Origin: Eledone cirrhosa
Taxonomy: Eukaryota
Assembly: GCA_964016885.1 (NCBI GenBank)
Contig: OZ024750.1
Span: 32,922,001 to 32,986,000, forward strand
DNA: 64,000 nt
Direction of reading: 5' to 3'
A model generated the notes under the pieces. It did not search any database. It had not been told where the DNA came from and was given only the letters and a program-made list of their open reading frames with translations. A program made the position numbers and the translations under genes. Below, piece after piece: positions 406-58,375 of the stretch. The stretch's first letter is position 1; every line of letters begins with the position of its first letter.

Positions 406-808
406 TAAGAAGAAATTAAAAGATGGTTAAAAAACTTCCATGTATTTTATTATGTGCATTTCAAAAACAAATATCATCCTGGGACGATATTTGCGTTCTC
501 ATCCGATAAAATAGGGAGACATGATATGATGCCTAAAAAACCCTTGTGAATAAGGTAGTGTCTAGTCAACATATGATAAATAAATTTAAAAGGATATAGA
601 AGATTGTCTCCCTATTTTATCTGATGAGAACGCAAATATCGTCCCAGGATGATATTTGTTTTTGAAATGCATATAATAAAATACATGGAACTTTTTTAAC
701 CATCTTATAATTTCTTCTTATATATACTCCAGTCCAATAAACTGTTGAGTGCTACTTATCCAATATTTGCATTGCTTTATTGTTCTACAATAAAACTCAC
801 CTCCTACA
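406..808 (+). mobile_element. Fold-back PLE-type pLTR insert in (TA)n: inverted arms 406-521/605-720 plus unique tail
   Basis: Arms of about 116 bp are reverse complements with few mismatches, (TA)n lies on both sides, the arm contains a hammerhead, and the tail carries the bulged hairpin at 726-750. Confidence 0.8.
613..683 (+). ncRNA. Type I hammerhead ribozyme (minimal helix III)
   Basis: Stem I TATTTTAT/ATAAAATA; core CTGATGA; stem II CAAATATCGTC/GATGATATTTG; GAAA-TGCATA-T-A. The mirror copy on the minus strand (about 443-513) has a mutated core, CGGATGA. Confidence 0.8.
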
Positions 809-1374
809 CATATATATATATATATATATATATATATATATATATATATATATATAAATATATATATATATATATATATATATATATATATATAGAAAGT
901 GAGGTTTTTTTTACAAATTGAAAAATAACCGAGGTGTCCAGTTGCATTTTCGATTTCATCTTTTTTTCTTTATATATATAACACATGCTAGCATGGAAGA
1001 TGGACGTTAAATGAAGATGATAATGATGATGACACTCTATATAACTATCTGTCTGTCAGTCAATTTATCTTTCTGTATATACAGACACACACATATATAG
1101 GGGGGGGGGGGGGGCAGGCGTCTGTGTGGGCGTACGTGTGTATTATATATGCATCCTACATAAATTTACTATGTTTACCGAATAAGATATATACACAACT
1201 TCTGATAAAACATTTATTTATTTATGTATGTATGATTGTTTTTAGGTGTGTGTACATATGCATATTTGTAAGGATGCATGTATGTAAGAAGGTGTGCATG
1301 TATATATGCGGATGCATTTAGGTGTATTTTCATGATGTGAATATAATAATATATTTATAATTGTTTACATATGA

Positions 1375-2362
1375 ATATATATTTATATATATATATATAT
1401 ATATTTATATATATATATATTTATATATATATATATATTTATATATATATATTTATATATATATATATATATATTTATATATATATATATATATTTATAT
1501 ATATATTTATATATATATATATATTTATATATATATATATTTATATATATATATATATTTATATATATATTTATATATATATATATTTATATATATATAT
1601 ATATATTTATATATATATATTTATATATATATATATTTATATATATATATTTATATATATATATATTTATATATATTTATATATATATATATATATATTT
1701 ATATATATATACATATATTTATATATATATATATTTATATATATATATATATTTATATATATATATATATATTTATATATATATATATATATTTATATAT
1801 ATATATATATTTATATATATATATATTTATATATATATATATATATTTATATATATATTTATATATATATATATTTATATATATATTTATATATATATAT
1901 ATATTTATATATATATATATATATTTATATATATATATATTTATATATATATATATTTATATATATATATATATATATTTATATATATATATATTTATAT
2001 ATATATATATATATTTATATATATATATATATTTATATATATATATATATATTTATATATATATATATATATTTATATATATATATATATATATATATAT
2101 ATATATTTATATATATATATTTATATATATATATATTTATATATATCTATATATTTATATATATATATATATGTATATATTTATATATATATATATTTAT
2201 ATATATATTTATATATATATATATTTATATATATATATATATATATATTTATATATTTATATATATATATATATATATATTTATATATATATATATATAT
2301 ATATATATATATATATATATATTTATATATATATATATATATATATTTATATATATATATAT
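1375..2362. repeat. About 1 kb imperfect (TA)n microsatellite
   Basis: Read directly; source of the IY-repeat ORFs. Confidence 0.98.
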
Positions 2363-2393
2363 TAGAATAAATGCTCTGAAATAGCGATATATA

Positions 2394-2750
2394 TGTGAGT
2401 ATAGACATAGAATATTCGAAAATATTCTGTATGTTTATAATAAACATTTTGAAGACCTAATCGCTATAGAATAGAATACGTCACGTATTACAATTAGATT
2501 CTCTTTCAAACCAGTTCCAGTACACAGCTAAGTATTCTATAAGTCTCTAGCTGTGTCATTCTCGATAAAAGCACTGGATATGTAGTCCTGATGAATTCTA
2601 ACAAGAATGAAACGCGTAGATTACTTCCCTTGCTTTTATCGAGAATCTAATTGTAATACGTGACGTATTCTATTCTATAGCGATTAGGTCTTCAAAATGT
2701 TTATTATAAACATACAGAATATTTTCGAATATTCTATGTCTATACTCACA
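2394..2750 (+). mobile_element. Fold-back insert in (TA)n: arms 2394-2503/2641-2750 with a hammerhead in the spacer
   Basis: 110-bp inverted arms; the same peptide [20 protein letters not shown] appears in the ORF track on both strands. Confidence 0.85.
2582..2624 (+). ncRNA. Minimal type I hammerhead ribozyme, PLE-type
   Basis: GTAGTC-CTGATGA-ATTCT(AACA)AGAAT-GAAA-CGCG-T-A-GATTAC; the palindromic CGCG loop 3 is typical of PLE hammerheads. Confidence 0.9.
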
Positions 2751-3116
2751 TATATATATATATATATATATTTATATATTTATATATATATTTATATATA
2801 TATATATTTATATATATATATATATATATTTATATATTTATATATTTATATATATATATATATTTATATATATATATATATATATTTATATATTTATATA
2901 TATATATATATATTTATATATATATATATATTTATATATTTATATATATATATATATATATTTATATATATATATATTTATATATTTATATATATATATA
3001 TATATATATATTTATATATATATATATTTATATATTTATATATATATATATATATATATATATATATATATATATATATATATATATATATGATATGTTA
3101 AGTATTTCCAAAGAGC

Positions 3117-3303
3117 TATTTAATTAGAAAGTAAACAACATAATATAACTAATCCATTACCAAAGGTTTCAGGACCCTAGACAGTATTAACATATGTCTA
3201 GTTCATCTGCTGAACGATCTAGACATATGTTAATATTGTCTAGAGTCCTGAAACCTTTGGTAATGGATTAGTTATATTATGTTGTTTACTTTCTAATTAA
3301 ATA
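3117..3303. mobile_element. Fold-back insert between (TA)n tracts: arms 3117-3201/3219-3303
   Basis: 85-bp inverted arms. Each arm carries a hammerhead-like 3' half (GAAAC-CTTTG-GTA) but there is no CTGANGA. Confidence 0.75.
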
Positions 3304-55764: not shown

Positions 55765-56439
55765 ATCAACAACGTAGACTCTATTCAACTGGTCAGTATT
55801 CTCTTCTTGATTTAATCGATAAAGAGCAAAAACACCAATTTACTTATAAGAGACAGTGAACAATCTAGACTACGTATTACTGATTACTGATTGTTCCAAC
55901 AATTTGAAGTTTTCAAAGAACAGGATTTCTAATTTATAGGCGATTGTTTAAACAGATCAATACTTGACATTTAAAGAATATTAACCACTTACCAACCAAT
56001 ATTTCCTTCTTATACAAAGGGAAGGTTAATTTTCGTAATCCAACAAACCAATTTAATATGCTAGATAATACATGCATGGTCACCTAACTTCTGATGGAGT
56101 CGTGGGAGCGCCGTATTGACAATACTGCGTTTCTTGGGTATTCTTAGACCTGGCGGTGCCCATCTCCTCTCCAGGTCTGAGTACAGCAGATTTCTTCTAG
56201 AGAAGGATAGAGAGTGAGAAAGAAACCTAGAGAAAGAATCGAACCCCAGTACTAGACTGGTACTTTTTACATCAACTTCGAATGGATAAACGGCAAAGTT
56301 GACCTAGACGAGTTTTGAACTCAGAGAGTAGAGAGCTGAAACGAATGCTGCAAATATTCTAGCTGAAGTTTAATGACTTTGCCAATTCACTGCCTCATGC
56401 TAGATAATAGTAGTATATAAAACACATACCGGAGTTTGT

Positions 56440-56620
56440 TCCTTCCGTGCTGGTTGTTGCCGAGGCATCTGGTGTCCTTGGTCATCACACTGCAAAATCA
56501 GAAAGACAGTAGCACGCCTGAGGAAGGAGGTGCGGGGGTGGCTGTTGCAGCAGCTCTCGCCGGCCATTCTCAGTGGAAATATCTTCGGTATTCTATCTGC
56601 GAGGCAAGACCGAATCACAT
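56440..56620 (+). pseudogene. CRE-like RLE remnant
   Basis: EASGVLG and WLLQQLSPAILSGNIFGIL. Confidence 0.55.
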
Positions 56621-56712
56621 CTCAAAGTGAGGTGTCGTATCTGTCCCTCCCACTTTTTCCTCTTTACTTGTGATAATTATTATATATTTTATCATTATTG
56701 TATAATAACAAG

Positions 56713-56902
56713 GGCGGTGGATTGGCAGTATCGGTAGAGGGTCGGACGCCATGCTTTCCAGCATAGTTACGTCCCTTTACGATCTGAGTTCAAATCCCGC
56801 CGAGGTTGACTTTGTCTTTCATCCTTACGGGGTCGATAAAATAAAGTACCAGTAATGCACTGGGTAATTGCTGGCCTTGTGCCTAAAGTAGAAACAATTA
56901 TT
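56713..56902 (+). mobile_element. SINE family A, full-length
   Basis: GGCGGTGGATTGGCAGTATCGG...GTAGAAACAATTATT, flanked by a TTATTGTATA-like duplication. Confidence 0.92.
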
Positions 56903-58013
56903 GTATATTAACATAACCAGAATTATATAGGAATCTTGCTTACTTTAGCAAAGACAGGGAGATATGTAATCTTGATAATCACTAACAAATCAGAAACAAT
57001 TGCATCATCGATTACTTCCTCTTATTTTTGCTGAAGCTAGGTATGTAGTGATTGTCACAACCTTAAAATTCATAGCGAAATGCCTTCAAATGTTTTTCGT
57101 AAACATACCGTATATTATTCAATGTACAATACGTACATATTTTTTACAATTTTTGGATCATGTCAAGCTGGTTTTTGTTTTCTGCTTTTCTTTTCGGAAA
57201 AGTATTCTAAAAGTTTAACCATACTGGGCCTATAAAAGGTGTAAAGTTGAAAAGAAGGTACAATTATAGTATAATAGTTATTATAGTTATTTTAGCTGTG
57301 TTATGGAAAGGTCTAGGTCTTATCACCTGCAATTAGGGACTGAAAAAATTAGGTTTATATCTATAAATTATATATATATATATATTTTTTTTTTATTCAT
57401 TAATAATTCAAATGCAGTAAGTATTCCCGAAAAGCAGCAAAGGTCATCAAATATCTCTGAAATTACACATGTAATAGTAAACCATGCTATAGTCTTGGAA
57501 GATATGTTTCACGCAGCAAATGTATGTCGTCTGTTACAGGTTAATACAATATCTCAACATTTAGTCTCAGCATAAAAAAACAGATTTATTTGACAAGCTG
57601 ATTATTTAATGAAGCAGCCATCTTTTCTTGGATGGACGAACATGATCACGTCTGTTTTGTTTTCGTATTTAGCACCAACAATATTCTGACAACATATATG
57701 TATTCCTACGTAATTGGTTTCTTTCTTTCAAATAGCTTTAGCTTTAATACCTTGATAGAAATTCTCCTTTTGCTTATCACTAGTAACCCATAAATTTTTA
57801 GGGGGATAGCCGCGAGGAAAATGTACTTTAATAACTTATATTATATCCTATATTTAGGAAGGCAAAACTAATGAGTTCACAGGATTGGCATAGTTTTCAT
57901 ATTTCTTATTATTGGGGAAAATGTACAGCTTCTGTAAATACTACCCATGCATTTTCTCAAAGAATTAAAATAAATACATTAAATAAGATATATATATATA
58001 TATATATATATAT

Positions 58014-58375
58014 ATATTGTTATACTTTGGGAGGGCCATGTTGCCAATAAGAAACACACGCACCAGTTGCTTTCACTTCAATTTATTATAATAAATTTAT
58101 AAATTAAGGAATTTATAAATTTCCGGTTGGTTGGTTCCACAACCAGATGGTTGTTTATATATTGTCAAAGTTCTTTCGTCACACATTCTGTGACCTCTTC
58201 AGTGACTGAGGATTTTTTTCTTTGTTTGTGTGCCTCTCTTTTGTTCTGTCCTACGCCATCTTGTTTCTGTGTGTGTGTTTCTTATTGGCAACATGACCCT
58301 CCCAAAGTATAACAATATCGGTTTCAACACACGTTTTCAGATAAAGAATCTTGCTAAACAAATTCAGAAACGAAA
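58014..58375 (+). mobile_element. Fold-back insert in (TA)n: arms 58014-58063/58269-58318 plus tail
   Basis: 50-bp inverted arms with a minus-strand hammerhead in the spacer. Confidence 0.8.
58164..58206 (-). ncRNA. Minimal type I hammerhead ribozyme
   Basis: GTCA-CTGAAGA-G-GTCACA(GAATG)TGTGAC-GAAA-GAAC-T-T-TGAC. Confidence 0.75.

Follow-up and report, generated by a model that had tools for sequence, protein, structure and literature searches.

Fold-back islands in (TA)n tracts of the Eledone cirrhosa genome as probable paired end repeats of Penelope-like elements

Penelope-like elements (PLEs) of the endonuclease-positive (EN+) kind, among them the Hydra, Neptune and Penelope/Poseidon groups, have been described as partial tandems joined back to back to a 5'-truncated copy in inverse orientation, most often tailed at one end, with a hammerhead ribozyme in the end repeat and a bias for (TA)n targets (Craig et al., 2021, PMC8557442; PMC2377424). 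Hammerheads are reported as general in PLEs with a C-terminal endonuclease (PMC8557442). The present analysis concerns sixteen short islands in or beside (TA)n tracts in a 64,000-nt stretch of contig OZ024750.1 of Eledone cirrhosa (positions 32,922,001–32,986,000, hereafter the window), which is rich in microsatellites and belongs to a genome of 3.0 Gb. Most of these islands are very probably back-to-back pairs of 5'-truncated PLE end repeats, and were probably made by priming from both ends of a broken (TA)n target.

Three further systems are close enough for comparison. The Poseidon protein of Anolis, studied in vitro, cuts and extends both strands of AT-rich targets, initiates reverse transcription within the RNA, at two sites with the tail between them, and uses uncleaved RNA as its main substrate (Frangieh et al., 2024, PMC11167929). 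Metazoan non-LTR retrozymes are tandem units with a type I hammerhead each (PMC7229834), and an origin from PLEs or mobilisation by them has been proposed (PMC7229834; bioRxiv 10.64898/2026.07.22.740005). The MuTAnT miniature inverted-repeat transposable elements (MITEs) of Medicago belong to a TA-targeting Mutator-like family (PMC4486113) and resemble the islands in size, inverted arms and TA flanks. The islands share the layout of EN+ PLEs and the AT-rich targets of Poseidon. They differ from the EN+ PLEs, as far as the parts of those accounts available to us describe them, in the predominance of the shortest products and in a single fixed 5' edge at which three families end (PMC8557442), and in that tails reach 95 nt instead of 30–40 bp (PMC8557442, PMC2377424). 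The one-tail count and the fixed edge are modest additions; the rest is mostly known PLE biology.

Islands, hammerheads and parent elements

A non-microsatellite island was found at each of the 16 positions listed in the original prediction, by which the islands are named here. Inverted arms of at least 25 bp were present in 13 of them, with a range of 27–167 bp and an identity of 85–100%: 406 (114 bp), 2394 (112), 3117 (88), 17201 (39), 34738 (167), 36117 (91), 36613 (52), 41915 (68), 48210 (55), 50931 (27), 51831 (55), 53783 (53) and 58014 (47). No fold-back was seen in islands 38220, 48050 and 49368. In 11 of the 13 fold-backs one arm reaches exactly to the edge of the island; the other arm carries an extra 25–95 nt, the tail, in ten of these, the far end of 50931 not being delimited. 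The islands had been taken for unique sequence and are instead multi-copy, with 137 to 3024 first-look candidates for seven island queries (lower bounds) and 1866 exact matches for a 29-mer from 36117.

A strict type I hammerhead descriptor detected six motifs in the window (621+, 2588+, 34830−, 35148+, 38288+ and 50756+), against a mean of 0.02 and a maximum of 1 in 100 block shuffles. Five lie in listed islands; the sixth marks an island that the earlier list lacked, a tail-less end repeat (50700–50857, +) with a complete minimal hammerhead, relatives of which occur in 11 of the first 124 loci, several as tailed fold-backs. Inspection by eye under relaxed rules added two complete cores in which stem II is weak or bulged (51103+, 58202−), cores with one base changed (3207+, 49379+), a 3' half in 48050, 36613, 51831 and 53783, and degenerate motifs in 41915 and 48210, with none seen in 36117; a variant core was also noted by eye in the 17201 family. 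The expectation of whole or half hammerheads in the islands was thereby borne out, the end repeats carrying a minimal type I motif that is degenerate in the 36613 and 17201 families. Among the matches listed by an Rfam scan (the best 150 of 192) there was no hammerhead, just sub-threshold microRNA-like matches. By folding energy, 406 alone of six hammerhead regions clearly exceeded its shuffles (z = −3.45; the others −0.3 to −1.8). It should also be noted that minus-strand strings resembling a hammerhead core occur outside the (TA)n islands at 40286 (40240–40300) and 60570 (60540–60600), with no relatives in the first 124 loci.

Eight of the 16 islands could be tied to frames of autonomous PLEs encoding a reverse transcriptase (RT) or a GIY-YIG endonuclease. 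Island 34738 (34743–35330, +; arms 34743–34909 and 35069–35235, tail 35236–35330, cores 34830− and 35148+) derives by 5' truncation from an autonomous PLE of Hydra type that is very young. Its best 40 matches are about 100% identical, and its parent is a 5.1-kb tandem at two loci, with the shared end repeat on both sides of an RT plus GIY-YIG frame; open frames above 800 aa occur in many copies of the family, and no RNA sequence match was listed for the parent. Islands 36613 (36616–36800, +; arms 36616–36667 and 36674–36725, tail 36726–36800), 51831 (51833–52026, −) and 53783 (53786–53976, −) form one family of Hydra-type end repeats, the first a short palindrome and the last two a second subfamily with the tail on the left. 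The tail of this family continues into an RT frame at loci L135 and L155, and the 36613-family end repeat recurs in a related family, the open frames of which are intact and 784 aa long; it was present in most of the 30 loci fetched, at about 91% to 36613 and 51831 and 88% to 53783; for 51831 and 53783 the parent link holds at family level only. A small-RNA gene with a U6-type promoter, considered upstream of the repeat at L135 and L142, was dropped, the region being PLE 3' untranslated region (UTR).

Island 406 (408–808, +; tail-less inverted arm 408–521, direct arm 605–718, core 621, tail ~719–808) is a Hydra-type fold-back with a tail that continues into an RT frame at L055 and L282, a link that covers the RT part only. 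For island 17201 (17203–17485, +; tail-less inverted arm 17203–~17372, direct arm 17379–17417, tail 17418–17485), a Hydra-type endonuclease frame upstream of the end repeat is followed at L281 and L279 by a common 3' region up to that repeat, the RT and endonuclease parts having been found in broken copies. Nearby frames at L189 and L282 (17201 copies) and at L314 (a 38220 copy) were rejected as parents because they are part of neighbouring elements. Island 58014 (58017–58375, +; tail-less inverted arm from 58017, core 58202−, direct arm 58269–58315, tail to 58375) is a fold-back end of Neptune/Nematis type with an endonuclease frame immediately upstream in seven of 30 loci and RT frames in several. 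Island 36117 (36119–36577, +; arms 36119–36209 and 36448–36538, tail to 36577) is a fold-back from one end of a tandem element of Neptune type, 4.85 kb long, in which both RT and GIY-YIG frames are present. A pattern search revealed no canonical hammerhead core in the end repeat of this parent (L379:845–5826), unlike the EN+ PLEs described in the available parts of the literature (PMC8557442).

By motif, four of these families are assigned to Hydra and two (36117 and 58014) are Neptune-like. The motifs DKT, CxCX5C and CxxC/CxH are present in the 34738 parent and DKT in the 36613 and 406 parents, and the RT motifs agree by eye with the Hydra description. The two GIY-YIG remnants that had been predicted in the same target at 3890–5968 and 17560–18118 are both present on the minus strand. 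One is a 5'-truncated Neptune-type PLE (3890–5970) with a GIY-YIG frame (Pfam E = 0.018, below the cut-off), a CX4CxxC linker, a CA-rich 3' UTR and a hammerhead core at 4008, and the other is a broken, 5'-truncated Hydra-type endonuclease remnant (17560–18120) with a CxCX5C linker.

Targeting of (TA)n was evident across copies, with TA on both flanks in 29 of 30 copies of 36613 (window copy counted). As a separate observation, (TA)n tracts are pile-up sites at L020, L106, L077, L130, L156 and many other loci, where PLE families sit beside or within one another with fresh TA runs between them.

The PLE reading also has points that weigh against it. A parent was not found for six islands (3117, 38220, 41915, 48050, 48210 and 49368). 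Pfam gave no family for either of the two RT frames searched, and the clade names come from motifs compared by eye with the published account (PMC8557442), with no tree behind them. No empty sites were seen, and target-site duplications are unreadable within (TA)n. The stretches upstream of the 49368, 48050, 41915 and 50931 families revealed no linked frame, and DNA contigs over 50300–54200, the depth of which is not a copy number, included no usable empty site.

Among the islands lacking a parent, 3117 (3092–3303, +) has a tail at 3092–3116, arms at 3117–3204 and 3216–3303 and its altered core at 3207, the core being intact in relatives at L201 and L237; 41915 (41916–42228, +) has arms at 41941–42008 and 42033–42101 and a hammerhead that is degenerate at best. 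Island 49368 (49367–49506, +) is an unfolded tailed copy with its changed core at 49379, intact in most relatives, and 48210 (48200–48407, +; arms 48206–48260 and 48280–48334, then the tail) is an older fold-back of the same family. Island 48050 (48060–48160, +) is an unfolded, tail-less 3' half of a hammerhead with a relative at L015 that has the whole motif plus a tail, and 38220 (38212–38383, +) is an unfolded 172-nt unit of a young family with a complete minimal hammerhead (core 38288) and a fixed 5' end.

The original prediction had described the islands as truncated or retrozyme-like non-autonomous PLE derivatives. The first part stands for the eight linked islands; as a general label the second is less well supported, applying only to 2394 and probably 50931. 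Island 2394 (2363–2752, +; tailed inverted arm 2363–2503, tail-less sense arm to 2752, core 2588) is a back-to-back piece of a family of 310-nt units, each with a type I hammerhead, in back-to-back tandem arrays. Island 50931 (50932–51353, +; core 51103), with its 27-bp inverted arm, has relatives in partial tandems with a unit of about 420–430 nt and is probably a retrozyme. No such units were seen in the other families, so that this kind accounts for just one or two of the 16 islands. The 310-nt tandem unit with a hammerhead in each copy agrees with the non-LTR retrozymes in the available part of their description (PMC7229834), whereas the arrays here differ in lying back to back in (TA)n with one tailed and one tail-less end. 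The multi-unit arms of this retrozyme would be expected from a circular template, which has no end to run off.

Formation of the fold-backs and their 5' edge

One tail was found in 34 of 37 fold-back pairs, none in one and two in two; the pairs come from six families, include window copies and exclude any that the query of their own family had selected. Independent ends would give 18.5 one-tailed pairs (p = 3e-7). For Anolis Poseidon in vitro, no start-site difference between the strands was seen (PMC11167929), in contrast to the one site per end of these 34 genomic copies. The fold-back junctions vary from copy to copy, both among copies found by a tail-only query and among incidental ones, and the hairpin is therefore not propagated whole. 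The longer of the two arms may be either, and in 17201, 58014 and 406 it is often the tail-less one, which argues that neither arm copies the other cDNA. At two arm positions, variants of the subfamilies gave matching counts in both arms. An arm asymmetry hinting at whole-unit copying or RNA editing was rejected as an artefact of query selection at a CpG; incidental rows are C/C at that site in 13 of 18 cases (three loci appear twice). Genomic copies retain sequence on either side of the predicted hammerhead cut, in line with uncleaved RNA as the main substrate (PMC11167929). The fold-back of the linked islands is rebuilt at each insertion, and these islands are truncated copies of autonomous PLEs.

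A sequence of steps that would give this structure can be proposed from PLE biochemistry (PMC11167929). The GIY-YIG domain would cut both strands of a (TA)n repeat, and both DNA ends would then prime copying of the element RNA. Reverse transcription would start inside the RNA at two sites, the distance between them being the tail, with each DNA end using a different one. End-joining of the two cDNAs head to head would leave a fold-back with one tail. It was also observed that the tails of unrelated families open with a similar small stem-loop (ACTC...GAGT) directly after the tail-less end point (719–760, 17418–17450, 36726–36760, 48335–48365 and 49435–49465), possibly a signal for the first priming site.

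The short arms have in addition a sharp 5' edge in three families. In the 36613 family, with arm ends measured against the intact parent and with hairpin-picked and protein-picked loci left out, 89 of 105 arms stop at −3 to +15 of a single base and seven reach further upstream. This base lies 25 nt after a TATA-like motif, at a TCA motif, in the stem II loop of the degenerate hammerhead. In the 49368 family, 69 of 83 arms stop at +2 to +15, about 30 nt past a TATA-like motif; the query began inside the hammerhead, and shorter tailed arms are under-sampled. In the 17201 family 16 of 50 arms stop within 3 nt of the edge, 12 continue past it upstream and 22 fall short of it, and the long inverted arm of the window copy extends to the edge. 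By resemblance to consensus sequences, the motifs at the edge are taken for a putative TATA box and initiator.

On balance, and by a narrow preference, the sharp edge is regarded as putatively marking where the parent mRNA begins. Reverse transcription primed at the first of the transcript's end repeats would then yield run-off copies of 60–170 nt and near-uniform palindromes, and run-off at the start of the parent RNA would explain the short, uniform islands of several families. Several results count against this interpretation. No 5' edge was found in 34738, where 11 of 14 arms read through, or in 58014 and 36117; unselected copies of 406 stop at the edge in three of 12 cases, which is weak evidence, and 406 and 17201 have no consistent TATA motif. 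The +1 base was chosen after the pile-up was seen, and experimental work on the Penelope promoter describes it, in the part available, as internal and lacking a TATA box (PMC2377424). An inspection by eye for an untemplated G, a mark of the cap, gave no clear signal either way. No description of run-off at the transcript start was found in the literature covered, which is weak evidence of absence.

Alternative explanations

Most of the islands would appear to be by-products of autonomous PLEs and not self-spreading retrozymes. It is conceivable, if rather unlikely, that the short families spread by themselves as short interspersed elements (SINEs) do, keeping an internal promoter and a priming site, being transcribed in place and being copied in trans by the PLE protein. 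The 36613 family has 33 tailed copies found incidentally, among them 23 fold-backs, two copies extending upstream and none linked to a frame, no parent was seen for many arm variants, and the Penelope promoter is internal, all of which would suit such spreading. So would the 38220 family, a 172-nt unit at 98–99% identity in which 27 of the 29 other top matches stop at the same 5' base and five of 29 have an inverted piece; this query favoured full-length copies, so that the 27 of 29 shows non-extension only. Against these stand the match of the short copies to two parent subfamilies that carry frames (parents having been sought for one subfamily group) and the differing junctions, by which the fold-back units are not copied whole. 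Self-spreading is compatible with two-ended priming as an added step, and its best candidate is 38220. PLE reverse transcription starts inside the RNA, and the leader at the 5' end of a PLE transcript would therefore be a ready-made minimal mobile unit. As a tentative extension that we consider doubtful, such leaders (36613, 49368 and the 172-nt 38220) might have turned into SINEs driven by PLEs, inserting through two-ended priming as palindromes, marking the transcription starts of their parents to the base and seeding very many hairpins.

Less probable still is that a single cDNA snaps back on itself to form the fold-back, or that the fixed edge is a stall at an RNA structure. Short palindromes or filler at several junctions would fit snap-back, but a tail-less arm that exceeds the tailed one, as is frequent in 17201, 58014 and 406, is impossible by self-copying; similarly, in 49368 the edge is close to the 5' strand of hammerhead stem I, as a stall would predict, but in 36613 it falls in the stem II loop, beyond the paired strand.

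A MITE origin of the islands, from a TA-targeting DNA transposon such as MuTAnT, the published TA-targeting Mutator-like family (PMC4486113), is very improbable even though they are short, numerous and flanked by TA, with long inverted arms and constant outer ends, since in 34 of 37 pairs only one side has the repeat at its terminus, the centre differs from copy to copy, the arms run on into RT or GIY-YIG frames in five families, hammerheads and RT-coding parents set the islands apart from MuTAnT as described in the available text, and 36117, the sole family without a hammerhead, is likewise a PLE end. Inverted repeats at both termini around a fixed interior were not found, nor were symmetrical terminal repeats lacking a PLE link. 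For the six unlinked islands the rejection of a MITE origin is less firm, no search for transposases having been made. The warning that repeat finders risk labelling these islands as MITEs was supported.

Other repeats in the window and implications

Several further repeats were observed in the window. A dispersed repeat of about 185 bp, which we presume to be SINE-like, is present in about a dozen places besides 36276–36457 with 80–96% identity between copies (for example 13944–14130, 44188–44390, 48797–49182, 56678–56911 and 62596–62834); the copy at 36276–36457 sits in the loop of the 36117 fold-back and is unrelated to it. Isolated small palindromes with no long (TA)n adjoining were found at 39748–39793 (46 bp, perfect), 50653–50689 (37 bp) and 37626–37663 (38 bp). 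Minisatellites occupy 6485–7525 (period 68), 11156–12356 (period 30), 13050–13676 (period 20), 30204–32529 (period 66) and 54508–55764 (period 20, with a 10-bp subunit). The region 19646–22943 contains repeated segments of 170–650 bp and a 386-aa stop-to-stop frame at 19915–21075 (−).

The insertion of PLEs is still poorly understood, and thousands of short genomic copies yield two rules that can be tested. The first is that each of the two DNA ends uses a start site of its own, and the second is that short copies stop at a fixed edge, which would map the transcription start of the parent. Repeat annotation of such genomes would misfile many retroelement ends as MITEs or as unknown repeats. 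If transcribed within introns, the palindromes would form double-stranded RNA and could be substrates for editing.

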